Part shown: piece after piece, positions 4,072-19,179 of the stretch
Layout: each line of letters opens with the position of its first letter
How positions within the stretch are numbered: the first letter of the stretch is position 1
Origin: a virus
Lineage: Duplodnaviria > Caudoviricetes
Virus record (IMG/VR): IMGVR_UViG_3300031994_000043
Span: 32,001-96,000 of that record
Length of the DNA: 64,000 nucleotides
Direction: 5' to 3' (one strand)
Notes under the pieces: model-generated
Told to the model about the DNA's origin: nothing
The model's input: only the letters and a program-made list of their open reading frames with translations
Databases searched by the model: none
Translations under genes and position numbers: made by a program

Positions 4072-4100
4072 AATATAGTTTATTGTTTTTTATTTGTCAA
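4072..4100 (-). promoter_or_regulatory. sigma70-type promoter driving leader and tRNA operon
   Basis: TTGACA (4095-4100)-N17-TATATT (4072-4077). Confidence 0.8.
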
Positions 4101-4137: not shown

Positions 4138-4608
4138 TTATTTAAAGTCTTTTGCTAATTTAGCTTCTTTGATATATTCTTGCATAGCTTTTGAGGCTTC
4201 GCTTACTTCCATCCATTTGCCAAATTTAGTAACCAACTTCTGTAACTGTTCAAAAGTCAAATTCTTACAAACAGATTCAAAATCTTTCTGTATATTCCAC
4301 CAGTCGGGAACATTAGCATATCCAGTACCGGAGTAGGCAGGCGTGTAATAAAAACTGTATCTAGTATTATTCTTAACTGTACCAATTTTTATAATAGCGT
4401 CATATCCATATCCACTGTAACCAGATGAATTGAACGTGATTTTACATTCAATTCTCGGTTTGCTTTGTAGATTGCCTATAATGTCAAAGCAATCAAACTG
4501 CCCACCGAATTTTAATGTTGCTAGCTTATCAACTGCTACTTTAATGTTTTGGGCATTAGTTATAGCATTGTCGCATAAACTTTTAATTCTTTCTTCTGCG
4601 TAACTCAT
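4138..4608 (-). CDS. hypothetical protein, DF-tail family
   Basis: GGAG SD; ends QEYIKEAKLAKDFK. Confidence 0.8.
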   Translation of the reverse strand: MSYAEERIKSLCDNAITNAQNIKVAVDKLATLKFGGQFDCFDIIGNLQSKPRIECKITFNSSGYSGYGYDAIIKIGTVKNNTRYSFYYTPAYSGTGYANVPDWWNIQKDFESVCKNLTFEQLQKLVTKFGKWMEVSEASKAMQEYIKEAKLAKDFK

Positions 4609-4623
4609 TTAAACTCCTATGAA

Positions 4624-4655
4624 AAAGAGGGTTAGGTTGTTACACCCAACCCTCT
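4624..4655 (-). terminator. intrinsic terminator after the vWA gene
   Basis: AGAGGGTT...AACCCTCT followed by a U tract on the minus strand. Confidence 0.65.
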
Positions 4656-4675
4656 CGGGAGGTACAACAAACTAA

Positions 4676-6139
4676 CTATTCTTCAATGGAGAAGAGCTGT
4701 TCAGTAGTGAGATGATACAAACACCAATCCGGGATGTAACTCTCAGTACCTGGCGTGGAAATCATAAAGATTTTCTTGAAGAAATGTTCCGGCTTCGGGA
4801 AATCAAATCCCATATCAGTGAAATAGATAATACCATCAAATTTCGCCTTTCTTTCCTTAATTGCTTCAAGAACGCATTCAGGATTCGTGCATCCGCGACC
4901 AATCAGCTTGAAGTCGGACTTCTTCTGCTTCTGTTCGGTGAATGGACCGCAAACACCATCCCAGAAACAATAGGACACATCAGCATGTTTTACGAACTTG
5001 TTCACAATCGCACAACCACGTTCCACATCCTTATCGTCCATAGAACCGGAGCAGTCAATCGCAACAAGAATACGAGAACGGAACTTATGCTTCTTACCAG
5101 GAACATCAAATCCCTTTCTACGATCTGGTCGCATACGGGTATCTTCAGTGTACTTATCCACTGTGTTCGCCTTGAATCTCTTCAGGACTGTCTTCGGGTC
5201 AAATTTCGGAGTATTGGCAGCAAGAATAGCCTGGAGCAAACCACCACTAATGTTACCCCACTGAGAAGCATTTTCTGCAATGTGGTGAGTGATTTCCTGG
5301 ATTTCCTGGTCTACCAGAGTATTTTCTTCCCAACCTTCCGTAGCCTTTTCAGCTGCGTCCTGGGAGCCGTCAAAATACTCATCCAATGCATCCTTCGTCG
5401 GGTTTCCGCTTCCGCCCTTACCCTGTTGGTTGCCCTTGCCCTGGCCCTGTCCATTACCTTGTCCCTGACCCTGGCTTTGTCCCTGACCCTTTCCTTGGCC
5501 TTGGCCTTGTCCCTGTCCTTGACCCTGTCCCTGGCCCTGTCCGCCACCACCCTGCTTTTCAGCGCAATCCATCAACATAGAGAACACCTTTTCAAGGAAC
5601 CAGTGGTCTTCTTCATTGAACTTGATTTTAGCGGTTTCTTGACGGAATTTTGCCTTGTTCGGAAATTCCTGGAGCATCTGCATAACTTCTTGCTTGTGAG
5701 TATTCAACACAGAACGCTGATTTTCGTCAAACGAGATATAGTCAGATGCCTTCTTGAAAATCTGGAGCGGGTAGCATTTACGAGTAGTGATATGGTGCAA
5801 AGCAATTCGCAAACATTCACTAAACATAATGTAAGCCAAAATGGAACATTCCTGAATCTTGTTCAACCAAATCGGGTTATATTCCATGTTGATAGCACTA
5901 CCAGTGCCACGGCAATTCAAGCGGAGAGTGACCTGCGGGTCCTTGACCGGCTTTAAATCGCACAAACCAAAATATGTGAGAACGGCAGGTTCAAACTGCA
6001 TCAACTTCACTGCTGAAGTAATGAGCTGTTCGGACTTGGAATTACATTCATCCCACAGTTCCATATATTTCTTGTTATCTTCCTTATAAAGCTGGGCAAG
6101 TTCGTCCTTGGGAAGATTTGAAATTTGAATTAGAGCCAT
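4676..6139 (-). CDS. vWA-domain protein with N-terminal metallopeptidase-like domain (DUF2201-type) and GQ linker
   Basis: MIDAS motif IDCSGSM, GRGCT, YFTDM; (GQ)n linker; adjacent to a MoxR-like ATPase. Confidence 0.85.
   Translation of the reverse strand: MALIQISNLPKDELAQLYKEDNKKYMELWDECNSKSEQLITSAVKLMQFEPAVLTYFGLCDLKPVKDPQVTLRLNCRGTGSAINMEYNPIWLNKIQECSILAYIMFSECLRIALHHITTRKCYPLQIFKKASDYISFDENQRSVLNTHKQEVMQMLQEFPNKAKFRQETAKIKFNEEDHWFLEKVFSMLMDCAEKQGGGGQGQGQGQGQGQGQGQGKGQGQSQGQGQGNGQGQGKGNQQGKGGSGNPTKDALDEYFDGSQDAAEKATEGWEENTLVDQEIQEITHHIAENASQWGNISGGLLQAILAANTPKFDPKTVLKRFKANTVDKYTEDTRMRPDRRKGFDVPGKKHKFRSRILVAIDCSGSMDDKDVERGCAIVNKFVKHADVSYCFWDGVCGPFTEQKQKKSDFKLIGRGCTNPECVLEAIKERKAKFDGIIYFTDMGFDFPKPEHFFKKIFMISTPGTESYIPDWCLYHLTTEQLFSIEE
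5400..5555 (-). repeat. Gly-Gln coding low-complexity repeat
   Basis: Imperfect hexamer repeats encoding GQGQGQ. Confidence 0.85.
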
Positions 6140-6183
6140 AAATTTGTACCTCTTAAATTAGTTTCGTTTTTCGTGTATAGTCT

Positions 6184-6239
6184 AATATAGTAAATTGTGA
6201 GACGTATGTCAATCCAAATTGGGTAAAATAAAATTTACA
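6184..6239 (-). promoter_or_regulatory. early promoter with palindromic box
   Basis: TTGACA (6207-6212)-N17-TATATT; GGTAAA-N6-TTTACA at 6222-6239. Confidence 0.8.
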
Positions 6240-6326
6240 AAGAAAAAAGGTGGTTTTCCCATTAGTTGAGAAAACCACCCTCAACCACCAATAAGGAAAT
6301 TTGGGCGAACCCAAAACGAATTAAGA

Positions 6327-7532
6327 TTACTTAAATTCGTTCTGGATACGGACAATGCTAGTATAGAGAGCGTTCAGTGCGTTCACTTCCATACCATTTT
6401 CGTCCTTGACGCGGATTGGGCAGCTCTTACCGACCAACTTCGTCCACTTCTGCTTCTTTTCACGAGCAGTTTCTACTGCGTTCGTGTACACTTCCACCTG
6501 GATTTCCTTGGCGAGATGGGTGAGGAAGTAGTAGTAGTTAGTTGCGTACTTCTTGCCGAGTTCGGTCGGAGAATCAGGAGTTCCCATCTTGGATTCCTGT
6601 TCGTGGAGATACTGGCACACAGACTGTCCGAGCTGTACTGCCTCAATCTTGGACTTCTTGCAGAGGCTTTCTACCTTCTTGCCGAACTCCTTTTCAAAGT
6701 CCTTGGATTCCATAAGAGCCTTAGCATCCATACCAGTACCATGCTGAGCATAGTAGGTCTTGAACTTGGCAGCGATTGCCTGACCCACATAACCGGCACA
6801 GGATTCCTGGAGAATACCGAGACCCTTGTTGCCTTCAAACAAACCCTTTTCTGTTGCCATATCAAGGAAGTTTGCGAAATGAACCCAGGTACGGCGGGAT
6901 GGGAGAATACCATCAAAGCTCTTACCGGCCGTCTTGCTAGCCTGGGCATTGGAATACGGGTCAAGGTCACCGGAGTACTGGGAGATGTAACCCGTGACAA
7001 CGCGGTTCACACCAGCTTCAGTTGCCCAGTCAAGCCATTCCTGAACAGTCGGAGTGAAATTGTACACAACGAAACGGTCCATCTTTGCCGGGTCAAATTC
7101 TTCAACATCATAGTTACCATCGTCACCCGGATTGATGGCACAAATGACGTGTGAACCCGGAGCAAGCTTGAAGTTCAAAATCTTGTGGTCAAGGCCCAGC
7201 TGCATCATAGCATTGGTGACGAGGGTAGTACCACGGTTGATTTCATCCAGGAACAGAGTTACCGGGAGCGGATTGCCGTGTTCGTCCTTCTTATACCAAT
7301 ATGGCGGAACGAATTCGGTTTCACCAGTTTCGGAATTGATGCGAGGAAGACCAATAAGGTCACCGACATCGGAAATCTGGGAGGCCTGGAATTCAATACA
7401 GTCCTGATGCCAAACATTCTTTGCGAGCCAGCGAATGACTTCGGTCTTACCGATGCCGTGCGGGCCCTTCAACATCACGGTGTGAGAGTTAGGAGTTGCT
7501 GCGAGAACCATCTTGAGAGTCTGAATATCCAT
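6327..7532 (-). CDS. MoxR-like AAA+ ATPase
   Basis: Walker A GPHGIGKT, Walker B LFLDEINR, sensor AIN, arginine finger DPAKMDRF, PSRRTW. Confidence 0.9.
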   Translation of the reverse strand: MDIQTLKMVLAATPNSHTVMLKGPHGIGKTEVIRWLAKNVWHQDCIEFQASQISDVGDLIGLPRINSETGETEFVPPYWYKKDEHGNPLPVTLFLDEINRGTTLVTNAMMQLGLDHKILNFKLAPGSHVICAINPGDDGNYDVEEFDPAKMDRFVVYNFTPTVQEWLDWATEAGVNRVVTGYISQYSGDLDPYSNAQASKTAGKSFDGILPSRRTWVHFANFLDMATEKGLFEGNKGLGILQESCAGYVGQAIAAKFKTYYAQHGTGMDAKALMESKDFEKEFGKKVESLCKKSKIEAVQLGQSVCQYLHEQESKMGTPDSPTELGKKYATNYYYFLTHLAKEIQVEVYTNAVETAREKKQKWTKLVGKSCPIRVKDENGMEVNALNALYTSIVRIQNEFK

Positions 7533-7596
7533 AATTTATCTTTTTTCCTTTTTGTTTTATGGTGATTGTTTCAGTTAGTTAAAAATTACAAGTTAA

Positions 7597-7653
7597 AATA
7601 TAGTTTCTGTTTTTTGCCTTGTCAATGGTAGGTTTTGTAAAATGATTTTTACA
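7597..7653 (-). promoter_or_regulatory. early promoter with palindromic box
   Basis: TTGACA (7620-7625)-N17-TATATT; TGTAAA-N6-TTTACA at 7636-7653. Confidence 0.8.
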
Positions 7654-7655
7654 TT

Positions 7656-8033
7656 TTAGAAATCTTCCATCAACGCAGCGAGACGTTTCTTTTGGAAATG
7701 TGCCTTGTATTCCTTACACAGTTCACCCAAATGTTCACACAACATTTCATCTGTGTAAGTCCACGCCGGAACACATCCATTGAAGACGAAATCCTTATTT
7801 CCCAGGCTATCCTGCATATCTTCTACAGTTTCCAAACACGCATAAACGCATTCATCAATCATAGACAGAATGTAGCCTGAATTGTTCAGGAAACTTTCTT
7901 CATTGACATAAGCCATGACCGGTTCGTGCTTCATCCGTTCAGGGTCATTCAAAATCGCCTGGGAGTTCTGGTCTACATAAAGACCCAGGAGCATTACAAT
8001 TTTGTTAAACCTTTCAATACCTTCTGTTACCAT
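7656..8033 (-). CDS. hypothetical protein, DF-tail family
   Basis: Start moved to MVTEG (GAGG SD, downstream of promoter); ends KKRLAALMEDF. Confidence 0.8.
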   Translation of the reverse strand: MVTEGIERFNKIVMLLGLYVDQNSQAILNDPERMKHEPVMAYVNEESFLNNSGYILSMIDECVYACLETVEDMQDSLGNKDFVFNGCVPAWTYTDEMLCEHLGELCKEYKAHFQKKRLAALMEDF

Positions 8034-8063
8034 TGAAACCTCTTGTTGTTCGTTTCGTATTAT

Positions 8064-8130
8064 AATATAGTAAAAGAAAAACGGCTTGTCAATGGACAAA
8101 CCGCTTAAATTGTGTAAAAAGATGTTTACA
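8064..8130 (-). promoter_or_regulatory. early promoter with palindromic box
   Basis: TTGACA (8087-8092)-N17-TATATT; TGTAAA-N6-TTTACA at 8113-8130. Confidence 0.8.
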
Positions 8131-8131
8131 A

Positions 8132-8311
8132 TTAGTAATCTTCGTCTGAGTCACTCAAACCTATACCACACGCTTCATCCCATCCTTCCTTTTCAATAAT
8201 GTCCTGGACAGTATCTGCGTCAATATACATTAGTAACTGCTCTACAACTTCAGCTGCGTCTAAGGCACCATCTTGTGCGGCAGTTAAGAGTTTTTCCTTT
8301 ATATCTTCCAT
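8132..8311 (-). CDS. small acidic protein, 59 aa
   Basis: Hand translation MEDIKEKLLTAAQDGALDAAEVVEQLLMYIDADTVQDIIEKEGWDEACGIGLSDSDEDY; AAGGAG SD. Confidence 0.75.
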   Translation of the reverse strand: MEDIKEKLLTAAQDGALDAAEVVEQLLMYIDADTVQDIIEKEGWDEACGIGLSDSDEDY

Positions 8312-8326
8312 TTATAATCTCCTTTA

Positions 8327-8893
8327 TTAAAAATCGTTTGCGATGTTTGCTTGTTTACAGAAACTTTGTTTGTATTTCTTTTTTATATCTTTGATTTCAC
8401 CATTTATTCTTTCTATATCCGCTATTCGTTGTTTGTACTGATCCGTCCAATTTCTTAAATCCTGAGAATTTTGTAATGATTTACATATTTTCAAATAAGT
8501 TAATAGTTCTGTATAAGCCTTTTCTAAATCATCTACTGTATATATAGGAACTGGTTCACTACTCCATCTTCTGAAAAATTGAGGTGGAATCTTTCCTTTT
8601 TCCAAAAACAAATCTACATCGTAATTACTTATATTACTTAAATCTGCTGGCTTATAATAGAATACCGGGGCTTTAACTGTTTTTCGCCCATTCATAGTCC
8701 AAACATATCTTTCAAAATTCATTAAAGAACTTCCATCGTGTTTGTATGAATCACCAGAAAATTCAAAGACATCCCACTTTGGTCTGCGCTCAAAGTACTG
8801 TTTTGTTTCTGGGATTTGGGCAAATCGTATACTGTTAAACCCCATTGTTATTTCGTGCTTCGCACACCATTCTTTTATTTCTTTCCATATCAT
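8327..8893 (-). CDS. hypothetical protein, DF-tail family
   Basis: Ends FCKQANIANDF. Confidence 0.8.
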   Translation of the reverse strand: MIWKEIKEWCAKHEITMGFNSIRFAQIPETKQYFERRPKWDVFEFSGDSYKHDGSSLMNFERYVWTMNGRKTVKAPVFYYKPADLSNISNYDVDLFLEKGKIPPQFFRRWSSEPVPIYTVDDLEKAYTELLTYLKICKSLQNSQDLRNWTDQYKQRIADIERINGEIKDIKKKYKQSFCKQANIANDF

Positions 8894-8953
8894 TTTTAAA
8901 AATCCTCATTTAATTTGTTTAATTTAGTAAATTTCCTTAAACCTTCCAATACA

Positions 8954-9334
8954 CTAAAAATCGCTTTGAATACGATTTAGTTTCATTTCATACTTCTTCT
9001 GCTTGATTTCTTTTTCCAATTCTAGCCACTTTAAGTGCAATTGTCCGACTTTGTAAATTAAGGTATTATCATCGCATAATTCCATCCTAAATGTAGTATT
9101 TTCCCATATAAGTTCATAACTTTCTAATTCCAAAGTATTCTTATCCCTATGTTCTAACCAATGCCATTCGTACTTTTCACGGACATTCAATAAACACTTA
9201 TTCATCCCATAACTTACTACCCACTGCGTACCTTCCCCAAATCGCAGATATCGCATACCACCTCTATCCCTAGTTTCTACCATATTGAACTTTTCTTTCA
9301 ATAAGTCCATTACTTCATCCTGCGACATTATCAT
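8954..9334 (-). CDS. hypothetical protein, DF-tail family
   Basis: Ends EMKLNRIQSDF. Confidence 0.8.
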   Translation of the reverse strand: MIMSQDEVMDLLKEKFNMVETRDRGGMRYLRFGEGTQWVVSYGMNKCLLNVREKYEWHWLEHRDKNTLELESYELIWENTTFRMELCDDNTLIYKVGQLHLKWLELEKEIKQKKYEMKLNRIQSDF

Positions 9335-9863
9335 ACTTTAACTCCAATTTCGTTACTTCATCGTGTATAATACCAATAGGATAATAACTGTCCGAATGAT
9401 CAGTATAACACTCAAATATAGTCTTATGCTTACACTTAACCTTCAAATGAATCTTATATATCTTCTTATCAACCCACGAATCTTTTACTTCTTTTTCAAT
9501 CCTTTGATTTTCTGTATAACTGCAATTTAAGTCAAATGCTTCTAGATTCTTCGTCAAGCACAGTTCTTTATTTTTAATTTGATATAACCCGGCATAACTA
9601 CGATAACCATCGTCCTTATCTACAAAACAAATCCAATTATAATATAAATCCTTGTTCTTCATTGTAACAAAGTAAACTTGTTCACACCATCCTTCACTAT
9701 ATCCTTTATGATAAGAACAATCTTTTACTTCATTTCCCCTTTCATTATATACTTTAATCGTACTTTCTTCAAATTCATTACTTATTGTTTGTAACTTATG
9801 TAACATCGCCAATACTTTCTTGGCTCTGTCTAAATCAGTCCTTTCTATCCCTATTAACTTCAT
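9315..9863 (-). CDS. hypothetical protein (no DF tail)
   Basis: Start moved to MKLIG, adjacent to the upstream stop. Confidence 0.7.
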   Translation of the reverse strand: MKLIGIERTDLDRAKKVLAMLHKLQTISNEFEESTIKVYNERGNEVKDCSYHKGYSEGWCEQVYFVTMKNKDLYYNWICFVDKDDGYRSYAGLYQIKNKELCLTKNLEAFDLNCSYTENQRIEKEVKDSWVDKKIYKIHLKVKCKHKTIFECYTDHSDSYYPIGIIHDEVTKLELKYDNVAG

Positions 9864-9864
9864 T

Positions 9865-10227
9865 TTAAAAATCTTCCTTAATCTTGTCAATTTTCTTTTG
9901 TTCTTGCCACTTTTTACTCTTTTCTATATCCTTATTAAAATGCTCAATAACCTGCTCCATCTTCCATAAATCACATCTGTATTCCTTTCGCTTTTCCTTC
10001 CCACCAATCCTTGCTATATAATAAAAACTCTTCGTATCATTATGATAATATAACCTTATAAACGTGTCACTCATTTCACAGTCACCAAATAATAACGGCA
10101 AATCCCCATAATATACCATTTCATAGAAAAAATCGTCTTCTACATGGTGCTTCAATATAGGGCACTTTTCTAGCAATTCACTGATTACTTCATCTTTTTT
10201 ATATCGCTTTAGTATCTTCATATCCAT
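9865..10227 (-). CDS. hypothetical protein, DF-tail family
   Basis: Ends QKKIDKIKEDF. Confidence 0.8.
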   Translation of the reverse strand: MDMKILKRYKKDEVISELLEKCPILKHHVEDDFFYEMVYYGDLPLLFGDCEMSDTFIRLYYHNDTKSFYYIARIGGKEKRKEYRCDLWKMEQVIEHFNKDIEKSKKWQEQKKIDKIKEDF

Positions 10228-10405
10228 AATATAATAACTTTTCCAGGTTTTTCCAATATATACCGCGTTTTCAAAAAATTTTTTATTTTAAGTATAAACT
10301 TCACATAAAGTGGGTCAAACAAAAGTCTCGGTAGGTATGCCACATTATGAAGTACTTTCCGGTCGCAGATTTCACAAATAAATACCATAGGAAGTATTGG
10401 ACAGT

Positions 10406-10819
10406 TTAGAAATCATCCTTTATCTTTTTTAATTTAATATATTCCTTCATTCGTTTAATCTCATTAGAAATAAACCCACATAAATCTTCTATATCTTTAG
10501 ATGTAGGGGATAAATTTATTAGATACTCATTGTACTTACTAATTATATTATTATTTTTATCAATACAAGCTATACCTGTATATCCATAATAAGGTAAATT
10601 TTGAACATACTCTAAATGATGTGGATAAAGTAATCTATCTTTATCATAGAATATAAGAACACATTGGCCTTCGTCTTTAAAGTAATACTGAGCATACAGA
10701 TAAATTGAATAATTAGAAGGATGGTCAATGATAGCTTCTTTAGGGAAGTGAAGGTATAGGGCTTCTTTTACTCTATAATAGTTTTTAATTTGAGTTCTTT
10801 TGGTATTAGATTTAGTCAT
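10406..10819 (-). CDS. hypothetical protein, DF-tail family
   Basis: Ends YIKLKKIKDDF. Confidence 0.8.
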   Translation of the reverse strand: MTKSNTKRTQIKNYYRVKEALYLHFPKEAIIDHPSNYSIYLYAQYYFKDEGQCVLIFYDKDRLLYPHHLEYVQNLPYYGYTGIACIDKNNNIISKYNEYLINLSPTSKDIEDLCGFISNEIKRMKEYIKLKKIKDDF

Positions 10820-11174
10820 TGAAGTCCTCGGAAAGTTTAGATAAGCGTTTATTTTGTATAGATTCTTTGTATCGTTTAACTGCCTCTGTATAGTTGAATT
10901 TGAGTTGTTTTAGTTTAGTTCTTATTTCTTCAATAGAAAAGACAACATCGGCAGAGAAGTAGCACCATTCAAATTTATCCTGTTTAGTGAAAACGTATAT
11001 ATCGTGAGCAACATACCAAGCCGTAGAATCGTGCCAGATTAGATGAGTATTATAGGACACATTCTTTTGGGCTATATCTATGAAATCATACTCTAAAATT
11101 TTAGGAGTATTGACTTTCACATATAGGCCGAGTTCTTTTAAGAGAGAAGGTGGAAGTTCATTGAAAGGTAGCAT
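10812..11174 (-). CDS. hypothetical protein, DF-tail family
   Basis: Ends NKRLSKLSEDFND. Confidence 0.8.
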   Translation of the reverse strand: MLPFNELPPSLLKELGLYVKVNTPKILEYDFIDIAQKNVSYNTHLIWHDSTAWYVAHDIYVFTKQDKFEWCYFSADVVFSIEEIRTKLKQLKFNYTEAVKRYKESIQNKRLSKLSEDFND

Positions 11175-11176
11175 TT

Positions 11177-11500
11177 TTAGAAGTCCTTTTCTATATTAGA
11201 AAGTTTCTGTTCTATTTTATATGTTTTATAGAGAGAGATGGCAGCATTGTATTCTTTTTGCATCTCAGCAAAGTACTGTTCATACTCTTCAGGATAGATT
11301 CTTTCCCAACCTGCATACTCTATACAAGTTTCTGTCGCAAAGATATGAGTCGCGGCAAAGACATTATAAGGTGCAATCTTACTAAATGCGAACAAATTAC
11401 CAACAATAGGATAGTGACAAGGGTTTTTGAAATTATAATAGTTTTTAAGAGCGAGCTGTTCTAAATCGTATTCTCTAATGTAATCTTCTAAAGTTTTCAT
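11177..11500 (-). CDS. hypothetical protein, DF-tail family
   Basis: Ends EQKLSNIEKDF. Confidence 0.8.
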   Translation of the reverse strand: MKTLEDYIREYDLEQLALKNYYNFKNPCHYPIVGNLFAFSKIAPYNVFAATHIFATETCIEYAGWERIYPEEYEQYFAEMQKEYNAAISLYKTYKIEQKLSNIEKDF

Positions 11501-11865
11501 TGAAAGTCCTGTTTGATTTTGAGTTCTCTTAATTTGTTTTGAATTTCTTTAATTTGTTTAAGATACTTATAACATTCTTTTTTGAATAGAGCGAGAGAAG
11601 GTGCTTTAATCTTACGAAAAGACTCTATGAGAACGGCAGTTTCATCACTATCTTTTTCCATAGGTCGTATTCTTCCATTACTATCTAATTCTAGTTTGTA
11701 TGGAATAAAGAGAAATTCATTATCATACTGTAAGATAGTATAACTACACCGCGGGCCAAAAAGAATCTGGCCATTTAATTCAAAATACCCTTGATATTCT
11801 TTTAGTGCATCAGAATGGAAAATTTCTTTAGCTGCATTAAAATAATCTTCATAAGTGTGTTTCAT
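11497..11865 (-). CDS. hypothetical protein, DF-tail family
   Basis: Start moved to MKHTYE (ATGA overlap with the upstream stop); ends LRELKIKQDFQ. Confidence 0.8.
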   Translation of the reverse strand: MKHTYEDYFNAAKEIFHSDALKEYQGYFELNGQILFGPRCSYTILQYDNEFLFIPYKLELDSNGRIRPMEKDSDETAVLIESFRKIKAPSLALFKKECYKYLKQIKEIQNKLRELKIKQDFQ

Positions 11866-12212
11866 ACAAAATCCTTTTGCATTTTCATAAGTTTTCGGTG
11901 TGTTATTCTTTCTTTGCCTTCTTTGATTCTTTTCTTTATAGAGGTTCTCAAATGATAGAGATGGTTTCTTACTTCGTTCTCTGTTTGGAAATTTATAGAG
12001 CCAGCATAACCCCACCAAAAATGAGTGTCATCGTTATTCATATAGATTTGCTTTGCCATTCCAAAACTGCCATTCTCATAGAACCACAGTAAATGCCCAG
12101 AGTCTGGAGTGAAGTCTCTAAATCCATATTCAAGTCGGTCTGTATCTGTATCATAGTTTATTTTGACTAAATTTAATTCGTCTATGAGAGATTGAGAGAG
12201 CTGTGCTATCAT
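11862..12212 (-). CDS. hypothetical protein, DF-tail family
   Basis: Ends HRKLMKMQKDFV. Confidence 0.8.
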   Translation of the reverse strand: MIAQLSQSLIDELNLVKINYDTDTDRLEYGFRDFTPDSGHLLWFYENGSFGMAKQIYMNNDDTHFWWGYAGSINFQTENEVRNHLYHLRTSIKKRIKEGKERITHRKLMKMQKDFV

Positions 12213-12631
12213 TAGAAGTCCTTTTTCATATTAGCAAGTTTCTTATTTACAAGTTTTTCTTTTTCACATTTCTTATAGAATTGAAGGAGATTAAATTGTG
12301 CTTCTGCCCATTGAGAGAGAATTTGGAAATTGAATTTATCTGTATCTTCTACTTTATAACTAGCAGTATTACAAGAGAAGGAGTGTTTCCCTGTCGGAAG
12401 GAAAGAATACACCATAGTATCATACTCAATAGAGAGATAGCCAGTTCTAACATTACCTGAGACATAGACTGAACTAATCTTCTCCTCACCAAAATTTAAA
12501 CAAGAAAAACAATAGAAATCGTCATTACATCTTCTTTTAAGAGAACTACTGTAATTGTAATCATACTTTGTTAGAGTATCTTTTATTTTGTCCAAAAAGG
12601 TTCGGAGTTCAGTGTATTCGTCTTTTTTCAT
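12212..12631 (-). CDS. hypothetical protein, DF-tail family
   Basis: Ends NKKLANMKKDF. Confidence 0.8.
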   Translation of the reverse strand: MKKDEYTELRTFLDKIKDTLTKYDYNYSSSLKRRCNDDFYCFSCLNFGEEKISSVYVSGNVRTGYLSIEYDTMVYSFLPTGKHSFSCNTASYKVEDTDKFNFQILSQWAEAQFNLLQFYKKCEKEKLVNKKLANMKKDF

Positions 12632-13014
12632 TCAAAATCCTTTGATATATCATTTAGTTTATTCTTAATCTTATATGACTTAATCTTATGTTCAAAATCT
12701 ATAATCATCTCATTATAGTCAGATTCTGTAATGTTGTCAATGGTTTCTTTGGAAGAAACTTTTATAACATAATTATATTCTGGCGTATTGAATGGACCTA
12801 TATCCTTATAGATTATACTTCTATCTTCTAATTCGTGGTCAGTGTCATGATAGAATGCACAGGCTTTTTCTGTTTCAGCTAATTTTGGGTTGTATTCGGA
12901 AAAAGTTAGTCCTACATAGAAATTCTTTTTGTAATATGAATACTTTTTAGGATTCCAAGCCAAATATCCGTTTCTCCAATGATTTATAGCACTTTCATAA
13001 GATGTAGATTTCAT
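12628..13014 (-). CDS. hypothetical protein, DF-tail family
   Basis: Ends KNKLNDISKDFE. Confidence 0.8.
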   Translation of the reverse strand: MKSTSYESAINHWRNGYLAWNPKKYSYYKKNFYVGLTFSEYNPKLAETEKACAFYHDTDHELEDRSIIYKDIGPFNTPEYNYVIKVSSKETIDNITESDYNEMIIDFEHKIKSYKIKNKLNDISKDFE

Positions 13015-13391
13015 TCAAAATCTTCCTTCATTTTATTCAGTTTCAAGTATTCTTTCATTCGTAAAATTTCACTGGAAACTATATCACAGATGCGATTATA
13101 TTCCTTTTCTGTATTGAATTTAGCCACAGAGTAATCACGCAAATCCAGTACACGTTTACCATTATTAGATGGAGAAATTCGGTTGTTAGTTTTGTCATAA
13201 TAGAGATTTTCCGCATAAAGTATGTTTTTGTTCTCTTTGACAATTAGAACATAGGGACACAGTTCATAAGTGAAAATTTTACTACCGTCCAAAAATGCAG
13301 ATTTGGCACCGTCATTGATGTAAAGAACCTTTTCAGGAAATCTTTTTAAAAGAACACTTTTAAGCAGTTCAAATACTTGTTTATCAGTCAT
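13011..13391 (-). CDS. hypothetical protein, DF-tail family
   Basis: Ends YLKLNKMKEDFE. Confidence 0.8.
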   Translation of the reverse strand: MTDKQVFELLKSVLLKRFPEKVLYINDGAKSAFLDGSKIFTYELCPYVLIVKENKNILYAENLYYDKTNNRISPSNNGKRVLDLRDYSVAKFNTEKEYNRICDIVSSEILRMKEYLKLNKMKEDFE

Positions 13392-13582
13392 TAAAAATCT
13401 TCCTCCATTTTCTGTAAACGGCGGTCAATTTTATCTATCTTTCGGTCATATTCAGTTTGTTGTTTAGCCAATACTGCACTACGAAGATTTGTTTTCGCAA
13501 TCGTATCAGTAAGACCAGTCGCCTGAGCATATCGCTGAGCGGCTCTCTTGGATAAAAATGTTCTGCGACTGATCCAACTCAT
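13391..13582 (-). CDS. small protein, DF-tail family
   Basis: Start moved to MSWISRR (AAGGA SD); ends DRRLQKMEEDF. Confidence 0.75.
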   Translation of the reverse strand: MSWISRRTFLSKRAAQRYAQATGLTDTIAKTNLRSAVLAKQQTEYDRKIDKIDRRLQKMEEDF

Positions 13583-13595
13583 TTTCTTTCCTTTA

Positions 13596-14375
13596 TTAGA
13601 AATCGTCATTGACCTTGTCAAGCTTGGTAATGCGAGCAATCTGCTGGATAATCATATCTTCGTAATTCTTACGAGCTTCTTTCCATTCCTTATCTCGCTT
13701 GTTGTACTGTTTCATTGTGGCCTTGAACGGTTTACCATTAGTCTTAATGTAAGCCAACACATCAGCACACATCTTACCCTGAGCAACCACACGCGGCAGA
13801 TATGCTTCAAACTTATCAAACCAGGCGTTAATTGCTTCAGGAGTGGTGAGAATCCTGACATCATTGCTGGCGTAACGGTCTTCAAAATAGTTCAATTCGT
13901 TGTCTCGGAACAAACGATAGGACAGCGGAACCTTAATGTAGGTAGACGAGGCCTTAATGTTGCCTTCGTACATAAATTCAGTTTCCACATTATCCAAATC
14001 GCAAGCAATCATACACGGACGCTTTGGGTCAAGTGATAGACCGAGAATAAGTTCACCAGTGAACCAACCATCACGGGCATAACAGTACTGCTTTCGCATA
14101 TTCGGAAGTGTTTCCATTCGCAAGCCCTGATAGGTGATGAAATTGCCATTCCAGTCCGGTTCTGTCTTTAGATTTTCAAGCGACAAATTGAGTTTAGACA
14201 AACGATCTGTGACTAGCTGCTCAACATCCTGAGCAGACATGTTGTATGTAAAACCCTGCTTTTGCTTGTTGTGTAAATTGAGAGTAATCGGTCCATTACC
14301 CATATTACCAGCCATCTGTTGATAGAACTGTTGTGCCATTTGCATAATTGAATTTGGAGTAGGTCCATTTGCCAT
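13596..14375 (-). CDS. hypothetical protein, DF-tail family
   Basis: Ends ITKLDKVNDDF. Confidence 0.8.
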   Translation of the reverse strand: MANGPTPNSIMQMAQQFYQQMAGNMGNGPITLNLHNKQKQGFTYNMSAQDVEQLVTDRLSKLNLSLENLKTEPDWNGNFITYQGLRMETLPNMRKQYCYARDGWFTGELILGLSLDPKRPCMIACDLDNVETEFMYEGNIKASSTYIKVPLSYRLFRDNELNYFEDRYASNDVRILTTPEAINAWFDKFEAYLPRVVAQGKMCADVLAYIKTNGKPFKATMKQYNKRDKEWKEARKNYEDMIIQQIARITKLDKVNDDF

Positions 14376-15283: not shown

Positions 15284-15410
15284 AAAATAGAAAAAATTTA
15301 GCGGTTTGTCAATAAGAAAATCACCAAATTATGTAAAATTATGTTTACAATAAAAATTAACGCAGTTTGTCAATAAACAAACTGCGAAATTGTGTTAATT
15401 TTTGTTTACA
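15284..15410 (-). promoter_or_regulatory. early promoter with palindromic box, a second imperfect copy and a hairpin
   Basis: TTGACA (15307-15312)-N17-TATTTT; boxes at 15332-15349 and 15393-15410; hairpin CGCAGTTTGT...ACAAACTGCG at 15361-15386. Confidence 0.7.
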
Positions 15411-15412
15411 AT

Positions 15413-16033
15413 CTATGCGAACACTGCGTCTTCATCTCCATTAGTGCTGTCTAATTCGCAATCGTGATTATTAGAGAACTTAACTCCGAGTGTAGTGTAA
15501 ACCTGGTCGCCATAATCATACACGTCCGAACAAGCATATAATGTTGCGTTGTATTTTTTCAATAAATCGGAAAGTTCATTTTTAAATTCAGTTTCATATT
15601 TAGTTTGTCTATCTTTCTCAATTTTCTTTAGTCTATCATTGGTTACAGTTTCAAAAAATCTCTTAATTTCGTCATCAAAGTTAGTTTTACCTTCAAACGG
15701 ACAAGAAGGTTTATTCAACCAAGTTTTAATTGCTGAAGGACTTCCTTTATATTGTAAATGATATGGAATGTATTTTTTAGTTAAATCTGTATTTGTATCA
15801 TAAAAGCTTGAATAATTTGATTTAGTACAAGCATCCAAAGATACTGAATCTTTTACAAATTTATCTTTTTTGAGTGAACCCCATACAGACAATACAAGAT
15901 AAACACTTTTATCTTCTTTTAAATGACCGATAAGGAATTGTTCATAAACTCTATTTCCATCGTCAGTGTAACGCCATTCATTGAGAGTAAAGTTATGTTG
16001 TTTTAAAATTTCTTGTGCTTCATCTAATCTCAT
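15413..16033 (-). CDS. hypothetical protein with MxLxEA leader
   Basis: Start moved to MRLDEAQEILKQHNFTLNE. Confidence 0.75.
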   Translation of the reverse strand: MRLDEAQEILKQHNFTLNEWRYTDDGNRVYEQFLIGHLKEDKSVYLVLSVWGSLKKDKFVKDSVSLDACTKSNYSSFYDTNTDLTKKYIPYHLQYKGSPSAIKTWLNKPSCPFEGKTNFDDEIKRFFETVTNDRLKKIEKDRQTKYETEFKNELSDLLKKYNATLYACSDVYDYGDQVYTTLGVKFSNNHDCELDSTNGDEDAVFA

Positions 16034-16034
16034 T

Positions 16035-16754
16035 TTATTTGCTCTCATAATCTAATGCTGCCATTTCTTCATAATCAGGTTTATCACTATGATGAAGGTA
16101 AGTTCTCTTGCTTCCCATGTAATTATCATAATCCCAATTTATGTCTTCAATAAATGCAGCAACATTTTTGAATGTTCCACCGCCATCACCTTTAGGGGTT
16201 TGATATGATACTTGAAGTTTTTTAGATGGCTTTTCATCTTCATCTGGATAATACAGCGACCATCCAATTACATAGTCCTTTTTGCCTTTTCCCGGCTTCT
16301 TAAACATAAAGAACTTTTCAGTAGCGAAATCACCAATTCCTTTATTGTCGCCCATCTTTGCACCAATATATTTCCAACCTGTTTTCTTTAGTCCTTCAAA
16401 GATAGCAGCAATAGTTTTATTATTTTCTGGTGAACCGGCGAAGCTCTTTGCTCTTGTAATCTTTTGCTGAAGATTGCGTCCTTCTTCACCCCAAAGTGTA
16501 TGGTCATATTTTACTGGTTCTTCACCATAGTATCTTTTATAATCGTCTTTTGCATCATAATAGTCTTTACCGTGATTGCCTTTCTTCCAAAGCTTCTCAA
16601 AGTCTTTATCAAATGTTGAGTTGTGACGATGTGTCCACTTACGGCGCTGAGTTTGAGTCATGCCAGCAGGTAAATCAGCATCATCCCATTCATCTGTATC
16701 TTCAACAAGAAACCCTGCTTTTTTCAAAATTTCTTTTGCTTCTTTTAATTCCAT
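16035..16754 (-). CDS. hypothetical protein with MxLxEA leader
   Basis: Start moved to MELKEAKEILKKAGFLVE. Confidence 0.75.
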   Translation of the reverse strand: MELKEAKEILKKAGFLVEDTDEWDDADLPAGMTQTQRRKWTHRHNSTFDKDFEKLWKKGNHGKDYYDAKDDYKRYYGEEPVKYDHTLWGEEGRNLQQKITRAKSFAGSPENNKTIAAIFEGLKKTGWKYIGAKMGDNKGIGDFATEKFFMFKKPGKGKKDYVIGWSLYYPDEDEKPSKKLQVSYQTPKGDGGGTFKNVAAFIEDINWDYDNYMGSKRTYLHHSDKPDYEEMAALDYESK

Positions 16755-16755
16755 T

Positions 16756-17148
16756 TTAATACCCAAAACAATCCTGCCATTCTTTATTTACATCTTCCGT
16801 AAATTTTTCCAATTCGGGAGTCATTTCTGCTTCTAGTTTATCTTCCCACCAATCTTTGACTTTTTTGATTTTTACATTTTTCTCAAAGTCTTTAAACACT
16901 AATTGAGCATTACCAAAATTAAATGTAACAAGTAATGTATCAGTGTTAGGGTCCCATTTATAGTAAGTATCTATGTCATATTCTCGCATAGCAGTACCAA
17001 TAAATTCGTTTTCTTTATCCCCAGGTTTAAATTCTTCATCTTGAAATACTGCATTGATGATTTCACCAATTTCATATTTCCTTCTTGACTCTACAAGATA
17101 CCCGTGTAATTGTAATTTAGCAATAGCTTCATCTATATTCATTATCAT
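16756..17148 (-). CDS. hypothetical protein with MxLxEA leader
   Basis: MNIDEAIAKLQLHGYLVE. Confidence 0.75.
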   Translation of the reverse strand: MIMNIDEAIAKLQLHGYLVESRRKYEIGEIINAVFQDEEFKPGDKENEFIGTAMREYDIDTYYKWDPNTDTLLVTFNFGNAQLVFKDFEKNVKIKKVKDWWEDKLEAEMTPELEKFTEDVNKEWQDCFGY

Positions 17149-18570: not shown

Positions 18571-19179
18571 ATGAATTTATACGAAGCCGCAGATATATTA
18601 CATAAAAATGGATTTTTAATGGAATCATCCATTAAAGGTGATTTCGCAAAAGGTGAAAAAGGCGGTGAACCCTATTTTGATTTACCTAATGATTATACTT
18701 ATGATGATGCTAAAAGATACTTTATGGAAGCAATTTATGGTAAATTAGATGATGAAGATATACAAATTTATTGGGATAATTATTTGAGAAAATCCCGAAT
18801 AAAACAATTTGAAACAACATATAATCAGTTTGAAGATTACAAAAATAACACTAAACAAATTAAACTATATCGTGGATTGGTTCTAAATCGTGATAAAGAA
18901 GTAGATTTAGATAAAGCTGGTGAATGTTGGTCTTTTAATAAAAATGTTGCTGTAAAATGGGTAGATGGTATTTGGGATAATATGGTATTTAATCATATTG
19001 TAAATAGAGCTGAACTTGAAGACTGTAAGAAGGTTATTTTAACTGCTACAACAACATTAGATAATTGCCGTTTACCATATTCTATATGGCTTGCAGGACG
19101 ATTTGAAAGACCAGAATGGGAAGTTCGTGTAAAAGACGAATCAAAAGTTAAGATTATTAATTCAAAAGAAATAGAATAA
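18571..19179 (+). CDS. putative ADP-ribosyltransferase-fold protein with MxLxEA leader
   Basis: LYRG...CWSF...EWEV resembles the R-S-E triad. Confidence 0.5.
   Translation: MNLYEAADILHKNGFLMESSIKGDFAKGEKGGEPYFDLPNDYTYDDAKRYFMEAIYGKLDDEDIQIYWDNYLRKSRIKQFETTYNQFEDYKNNTKQIKLYRGLVLNRDKEVDLDKAGECWSFNKNVAVKWVDGIWDNMVFNHIVNRAELEDCKKVILTATTTLDNCRLPYSIWLAGRFERPEWEVRVKDESKVKIINSKEIE

Follow-up and report, generated by a model that had tools for sequence, protein, structure and literature searches.

An array of small genes in the window, a 64,000-nucleotide stretch covering positions 32001-96000 of a viral contig 109,449 bp long (IMG/VR record IMGVR_UViG_3300031994_000043), encodes proteins that vary widely in their bodies and share a C-terminal helix ending in Asp-Phe (DF). 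The array is one of two formed by a lineage-specific, unnamed and greatly expanded small-protein family, here called the DF-tail family, and both the family and the constraint on its tail are solid. The contig, 32% complete by CheckV and with a G+C content of ~35%, carries portal, major head and tape-measure genes together with 17 tRNA genes; the arrays belong to a giant tailed rumen phage that has not been cultured.

Across the contig, 32 minus-strand open reading frames (ORFs) end in DF followed by zero to two residues, whereas 1000 shuffles of each protein's composition yield 1.6 such ends on average and 7 at most. The terminal dipeptide second in frequency occurs 13 times. This count omits a 331-amino acid (aa) ORF ending DFFE, which has a weak glycosyltransferase-family match, and two near variants stand beside the 32, one with DF followed by eight acidic residues and one ending DDC. 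The family accounts for about one-fifth of the genes on the contig and lies in two blocks, at genome positions 7.3-15.0 kb and 27.1-46.4 kb, with 17 members upstream of the window (genome 7282-14974, 27144-27596 and 31544-31906). All 15 tails quoted in the first-pass annotation are present in the minus-strand ORFs to which they had been assigned, and the TAATG and NNATGA junctions it described between abutting or overlapping genes are real. The truncated ORF at the window start (1-428), which it had taken for a further member, is not one: its full product runs to genome position 31919 and ends ...EKTDTL, and it is the gene next beyond it that is a family member. Three gene starts were corrected (8033, 11865 and 13579), the first being placed downstream of the promoter at 8064-8092 because the longer ORF reaches across that promoter.

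Conservation computed on 72 distinct aligned tails, from the window genome and other genomes, reveals a motif longer than first noticed, spanning the last 17 residues: [YLIF]-K-x6-[KR]-[LI]-x-K-[IML]-x-x-D-F. With Phe as position 0 (99%), Asp occupies position -1 in every tail, Lys/Arg position -8 in every tail, Ile/Met/Leu position -4 in 99%, Lys position -15 in 97%, Leu/Ile position -7 in 83%, a hydrophobic residue position -16 in 75% and a basic residue position -5 in 71%. On a helical wheel calculated from these positions, about half of the circumference is conserved, and positions -2, -3, -6, -9, -10, -13 and -14 are free. A 22-residue tail profile, built from the sequences of other genomes only, matches 24 contig ORFs at E < 0.01 and 28 at E < 0.2; all matches stop within 0-2 residues of the C-terminus, apart from that to one near variant, which stops 8 residues short of it, and no internal match among the contig ORFs falls below E = 0.3. 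One or two residues follow the Phe in 16 of the 32 members, with 10 of these 16 extensions arising from NNATGA start/stop overlaps. The tail has a mean net charge of +1.6, and body net charge spans -15 to +9. In a comparison with MinD/FtsA-type membrane helices, the tail shows about five hydrophobic positions in 17, and its net charge and invariant Asp make membrane or nucleic-acid binding appear less likely. The profile does not match the end of the neighboring AAA+ ATPase (RIQNEFK), which was rejected as a family tail.

Because GAY followed by UUY would fit an RNA motif as well, we tested directly for one. Among the 18 genes followed directly by another start, 10 have G as the last base of codon -2, which places RGGAYUUY ~6 nt before the next ATG, as against 1 of 14 genes that lack an adjacent start (p = 0.0075); three cassette indels, described below, also break inside the DF junction. 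Both observations favor the view that the terminal DF answers an RNA- or DNA-level need, either ribosome binding ahead of the next cassette or recombination, and not one of protein function. DF is nevertheless kept in all 14 genes without an adjacent downstream start and in orthologue sets that lack the GGA core. The gene at 8954-9334 illustrates this: in 91 orthologue sequences (68-98% identical) all motif positions are invariant while -2 and -3 vary freely, and the window copy has C at the third base of codon -2, with the start of the following gene 60 nt further downstream. For the 259-aa member (13596-14375), 88 homologues were found, of which 38 were aligned; all 38 end in DF plus zero to two residues, and neither Asp nor Phe varies, even at 38% identity. 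Many different codons serve the Leu, Lys and Arg tail positions; K-15, K/R-8, L-7 and I-4, which lie 12-45 nt upstream, use many synonymous or alternative codons, and the Asp and Phe codons follow genome usage. DF without an adjacent start and orthologues without a GGA core speak against a purely nucleic acid-level origin, which was rejected, and we regard an RNA- or DNA-level need as a very improbable account of the dipeptide. The persistence of DF without an adjacent start and its invariance in the 8954-9334 orthologues and the 259-aa family thus indicate that the tail motif is selected at the protein level, and coupled genes reuse the DF codons as a GGA ribosome-binding core for the next cassette.

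The bodies evolve fast. With tails removed, BLASTP yields one significant pair (10812 with 11862, E = 2e-6), and the only invariant columns in the paralogue alignment are one Lys, the Asp and the Phe. These three columns, together with the invariant motif of the 8954-9334 orthologues, bear out the proposal that variable bodies carry a constant tail under extra constraint. The companion proposal, a modular tag on unrelated domains, is not supported. A full-length profile built from 26 small members and searched against 1.84 billion representative proteins matched only 43 clusters, 41 of which end in DF; most matches extend from near the N-terminus to the end, and most small members are thus aligned end to end. 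Many members also have a similar N-terminal helix-strand signature, and a search for longer proteins bearing the tail found none, which is weak evidence. We read most members as paralogues that have diverged from a single small fold, accompanied by a few elaborated forms, rather than arbitrary domains with a portable tag.

The AlphaFold2 model of the 126-aa member (8954-9334), computed with 62 orthologues, has a predicted local distance difference test score (pLDDT) of 79 and a predicted template modeling score of 0.69, and comprises a helix (residues 4-15), six strands and a long C-terminal helix (residues 88-124). Its best fold match is Mediator Med17C (Z = 6.8), with frataxin/CyaY at Z = 6.1 (root-mean-square deviation 3.1 Å over 76 residues), YjbR at Z = 5.7 and the T4 MotA C-terminal domain at Z = 5.1-5.3; nothing reaches 8. 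Frataxin/CyaY and YjbR-like sandwiches present the same order of elements (N-terminal helix, antiparallel sheet, C-terminal helix), but lack the ~20-residue helix extension of the DF-tail family and have no sequence relation to it, and their Z scores fall in the range of common arrangements. Because these weak fold alignments mostly stop at about residues 100-106, the ~20 motif-bearing residues would extend beyond the sandwich, and the motif-bearing end of the helix is predicted to protrude past the sheet. The 259-aa member is modeled (pLDDT 76) as an α/β core followed by a helical hairpin and a low-confidence terminal coil. For both models, Foldseek searches against the PDB and BFVD returned nothing at E ≤ 0.001 and wide VIA-align searches gave only weak matches; hhalign found no match between the two subfamilies, whose profiles are shallow.

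The conserved half-surface, the charged residues spaced seven apart and the widely varying body charge suggest a common docking helix, and we place at roughly 0.45 the probability that variable early proteins dock through it onto one partner. Along the conserved half of the helix, a hydrophobic stripe would be bordered by Lys (i), Lys/Arg (i+7) and Asp (i+14), and through this half every paralogue would bind one common partner, a host hub or a conserved phage protein. Each divergent body would engage its own target, and the array would then amount to a collection of adaptors for host takeover or counter-defence, all with the same connector.

Several points weigh against this docking model. No partner was identified among the candidates compared, namely the MoxR/vWA pair, the sliding clamp, SSB-type docking and membrane or nucleic-acid binding. 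Conservation of the C-terminal helix might reflect no more than the folding or stability needs of this small fold. In the comparison of the window with its close relative L001, tail conservation (92%) is only a little higher than body conservation (87%; p = 0.07). The 259-aa model packs the tail helix back onto another helix and leaves the last eight residues as low-confidence coil, K/R-8 falls to 42% in a distant clade, and the predicted protruding geometry derives from helix length and alignment ranges rather than from measured contacts.

Among the alternatives, an unlikely one that survives comparatively well is that the tail is a self-association element, with helices pairing as homo- or hetero-oligomers among members. 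The hydrophobic residues at 0, -4, -7, -11/-12 and -16 follow a heptad-like spacing, the 259-aa tail helix is modeled within an antiparallel helical hairpin, and Y-16/K-15 could pair with D-1/F0 in an antiparallel dimer. A parallel dimer, however, would set the like charges of K-15, K/R-8 and D-1 opposite each other, a symmetric antiparallel dimer would set R-8 against R-8, and coiled coils need no exact C-terminal end. Somewhat less likely, and likewise a live rival, is that the proteins are ordinary fast-evolving paralogues in which the C-terminal helix is the most constrained element and has no separate function. The end-to-end profile alignment of most small members, the predicted helix-sheet-long helix fold of one of them, the failure to find longer tail-bearing proteins and the barely differing identity of tail and body between close orthologues all agree with such a view. 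It does not readily explain why the invariant positions are charged, surface-type residues and a terminal Phe rather than core glycines or buried hydrophobics, why no body column is conserved, or why the helix portion aligning to known α/β sandwich folds ends short of the conserved segment.

The first-pass annotation had named the co-located MoxR AAA+/vWA pair as a candidate reader of the tail. In such a scheme, the tail would be a timer, degron or tag read by the AAA+ and the vWA-metallopeptidase-like protein, whose metal ion-dependent adhesion site (MIDAS) would bind the Asp or the C-terminus. The pair is located between array members, and a DxSxS-type motif, DCSGS, is retained in its vWA domain. 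In systems of the CbbQO and RavA-ViaA type, the VWA protein that partners a MoxR ATPase binds acidic residues of the target, which favors the idea. Three relatives, however, carry the pair (38-41% ATPase identity) on contigs of 139, 72 and 49 kb with no family match on these contigs, which are fragments (15-37% complete), as against 29 matches in L001. Similar pairs occur in many phages that lack the family, the pair has promoters of its own, and the peptidase-like domain appears to show HH where HExxH is expected. On the distribution among relatives this role is not supported, and we consider it improbable.

The analogy drawn with the SSB tail does not carry over. The ends of SSB and of T7 gp2.5 and gp4 (...DF) are acidic, lack ordered structure and depend on the free carboxylate of their final Phe. 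The DF-tail family resembles them in presenting Asp and then a terminal Phe as a docking element, but its tail is a mildly basic, predicted helix that continues past the Phe in half of the members. Least probable of all is a sliding clamp-binding peptide of the T4 gp43/gp33/gp55 type or resembling a PCNA-interacting peptide (PIP): the C-terminal h-x-x-D-F spacing recalls h-x-x-aromatic-aromatic, but the family consensus K-[IML]-x-x-D-F lacks Leu-Asp and paired aromatics, forms part of a long helix, and is unlike both the family-B DNA polymerase of a relative, which ends VVTLDGFFE (an end, TLDGFFE, that we take to resemble the clamp-binding end of T4 polymerase), and the GLDFY of the phage's own gp55. 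A clamp profile matched no gene on the contigs searched, but its control matched nothing either, so this negative carries no weight.

Array gene content turns over between close relatives. L001, whose ATPase is 99.5% identical to that of the window, carries orthologues of family members at 79-99% identity, lacks the genes at 12628-13014 and 13596-14375, and has two cassettes missing from the window. All three single-cassette indels break within the GAYTTY-stop/start junction, and the 12628-13014 cassette is flanked by a 13-base direct repeat. The earlier suggestion that conserved 3' ends promote cassette shuffling thus gains from these three precise indels, and a secondary use of the tail codons as a short repeat for cassette gain and loss is supported. 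The L001 orthologue of the 188-aa member (8413-8978 in L001) is split by a frameshift, which suggests that individual members are dispensable.

T4-like phages contain hyperplastic regions in which promoter-early stem-loop (PeSL) elements mediate cassette shuffling (PMC2839356, PMC4122927). The present arrays resemble these regions as blocks of small, variable genes without annotated function behind early-type promoters in a large myovirus, with gene-sized indels between close relatives and short repeats at the indel borders, and differ from them in that the genes form one paralogous family. Sigma-70-type promoters, some overlapping stem-loops, occur here as well: in at least one case, at 8079-8106, a -35 element lies inside a stem-loop, and a second stem-loop, at 15361-15386, contains TTGACA, both recalling the PeSL elements of T4-like phages (PMC4122927). 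PeSL-mediated shuffling is not supported, as all three indels against L001 border the DF/stop-start junction and not these promoter/terminator elements nearby.

The promoter motif TTGACA-N16-18-TAWWWT occurs 21 times on the contig, compared with 1.9 in shuffles, with the consensus TTGACAA...ACTATATT; 18 of the 21 are minus-strand copies distributed over the two array regions. This motif is probably an early promoter. Given the regular sigma-70-type promoters and the PeSL-like stem-loop, we read the DF-tail family as a set of early genes organized in translationally coupled operons. Taken together, this type of promoter and the AGGAG-like ribosome-binding sites speak against a host from the Bacteroidota.

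The family has no counterpart among the named families searched. Pfam gave no match above the cut-off for the 21 members scanned, NCBIfam none for 26 members, and PHROG none except one weak body match (4138-4608, E = 7e-4); the best match among PDB sequences has E = 0.14. GenBank phages contain no relative of the 259-aa member and no near-identical DNA, the protein atlas matches only unnamed viral clusters, and our literature search found no description of the family. ENA and Logan assemblies yield hundreds of matches on contigs of up to 417 kb. All 17 metagenome loci anchored on the 259-aa gene carry arrays, and where the anchor is only 40-60% identical the member genes differ and still end in K...h..h..DF plus one residue.

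Among 120 database orthologues of the 8954-9334 gene, 19 (P0003, P0006, P0012-P0014 and others) continue past DF with Gln at the position of the window gene's TAG stop, two of them running into the next family member. Either gene callers applied a TAG=Gln code or TAG is really recoded in some relatives. A 1.7-Mb bin filed as Clostridia bacterium RGIG9710 (G005; L026, L027) contains 46 family matches on many small contigs together with a phage-type PolB, and the relative P0029 is filed under an archaeal metagenome-assembled genome, Methanobrevibacter sp. Such bins seem to contain giant-phage fragments, and their taxon labels are therefore not evidence of host.

Features of the window, with positions counted from its first base
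Feature	Position	Strand	Details
Sigma-70-type promoter	4072-4100		
DF-tail member, outlying, beside vWA gene	4138..4608	-	156 aa, ends AKLAKDFK; tail-profile E = 0.05 at C-terminus; 90% identical orthologue in L001
DUF2201-type metallopeptidase-like + VWA protein, neighbor not shown to be linked	4676..6139	-	DCSGS MIDAS-type motif; Gly-Gln repeat linker
Sigma-70-type promoter	6184-6212		
MoxR-type AAA+ ATPase, neighbor not shown to be linked	6327..7532	-	Own promoter 7597-7625; ends RIQNEFK
Sigma-70-type promoter	7597-7625		
DF-tail member	7656..8033	-	125 aa, ends KRLAALMEDF; tail-profile E = 1e-6
Sigma-70-type promoter (read as early)	8064..8092	-	-35 inside stem-loop 8079-8106
DF-tail member, partial motif	8327..8893	-	188 aa, ends KQANIANDF; weakly similar to 184-aa upstream member
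DF-tail member, modeled, most abundant member in public data	8954..9334	-	126 aa, ends MKLNRIQSDF
DF-tail member	9865..10227	-	120 aa, ends KKIDKIKEDF
DF-tail member	10406..10819	-	137 aa, ends KLKKIKDDF
DF-tail member	10812..11174	-	120 aa, ends KRLSKLSEDFND; terminal ND from 8-nt overlap with next start
DF-tail member	11177..11500	-	107 aa, ends QKLSNIEKDF
DF-tail member, start at ATGA overlap	11497..11865	-	122 aa, ends RELKIKQDFQ; orthologues in L014 and L025 also 122 aa
DF-tail member	11862..12212	-	116 aa, ends RKLMKMQKDFV; paralogue of 10812-11174
DF-tail member	12212..12631	-	139 aa, ends KKLANMKKDF
DF-tail member, cassette missing from L001	12628..13014	-	128 aa, ends NKLNDISKDFE; direct repeat GATTTTGAATGAA on both flanks
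Perfect TTGACA-17-TATAAT promoter	12712..12740	-	Within window-specific cassette
DF-tail member	13011..13391	-	126 aa, ends LKLNKMKEDFE
DF-tail member, smallest	13391..13579	-	62 aa, ends RRLQKMEEDF
DF-tail member, larger body	13596..14375	-	259 aa, ends TKLDKVNDDF; missing from L001, widespread elsewhere
Sigma-70-type promoter (read as early)	15284..15312	-	Upstream of array

Several other genes lie in or near the array. A long linker of Gly-Gln/Gly-Lys repeats (~5300-5450) lies within the vWA/metallopeptidase-like protein, which measures 487 aa, compared with 471 aa in the close relative. Within the array, an extremely acidic 59-aa protein (8132-8311, minus strand) ends SDSDEDY and is 95% conserved in the close relative, and more distant arrays have gaps of a size matching its gene; it may act in DNA mimicry or bind the basic tails. 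Four larger proteins that lack the DF tail (15413-16048, 16035-16766 and 16756-17148 on the minus strand, 18571-19179 on the plus strand) have no Pfam match and share an N-terminal signature, [LI]-x-E-A-x-x-I-L-K-x-x-G-F-x-h-E, which resembles the N-terminal helix-strand of many DF-tail members; they may form a second terminus-defined family or be distant kin. Upstream of the window, the 331-aa protein ending DFFE (genome 16470-17465; L006 9470-10462) matches a TET-associated glycosyltransferase below the cut-off (E = 2.9e-5), a similarity that points tentatively to DNA hypermodification; the DFFE terminus seems to be a coincidence.

Poxvirus ankyrin-repeat proteins carry a PRANC/F-box-like C-terminal docking end that binds a known hub. 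The DF-tail family shares with them the many paralogues per genome, the variable body and the short conserved motif at the extreme C-terminus; unlike it, they belong to eukaryotic viruses, and there is no sequence or fold relation and no Pfam match. A bolder and rather doubtful form of the docking model would make the arrays a phage counterpart of this F-box/PRANC strategy, in which more than 30 early proteins with different host targets would meet at one hub through a 17-residue helix, the hub being, for example, a protease, chaperone, polymerase or nucleoid protein. SspB, an adaptor with a C-terminal ClpX-binding tethering peptide, offers a similar design, a target-binding body with a C-terminal peptide that docks to a machine, but it is a single gene rather than an array, its peptide is unrelated, and a protease partner is unsupported here.

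Small early-gene arrays without assigned function are a standing puzzle in large phages, and the tail peptide provides an experimental handle on the putative partner shared by more than 30 proteins. Were the bolder form true, the phage would gain a recombination-fed, exchangeable repertoire of adaptors for host takeover or counter-defence, and if docking holds, phages use the variable-body/common-connector design known from large eukaryotic viruses. Regardless of mechanism, annotation of the giant phages of rumen and gut, an abundant group, gains a new family, in which one codon stretch serves at once as protein motif, ribosome-binding site and recombination junction.

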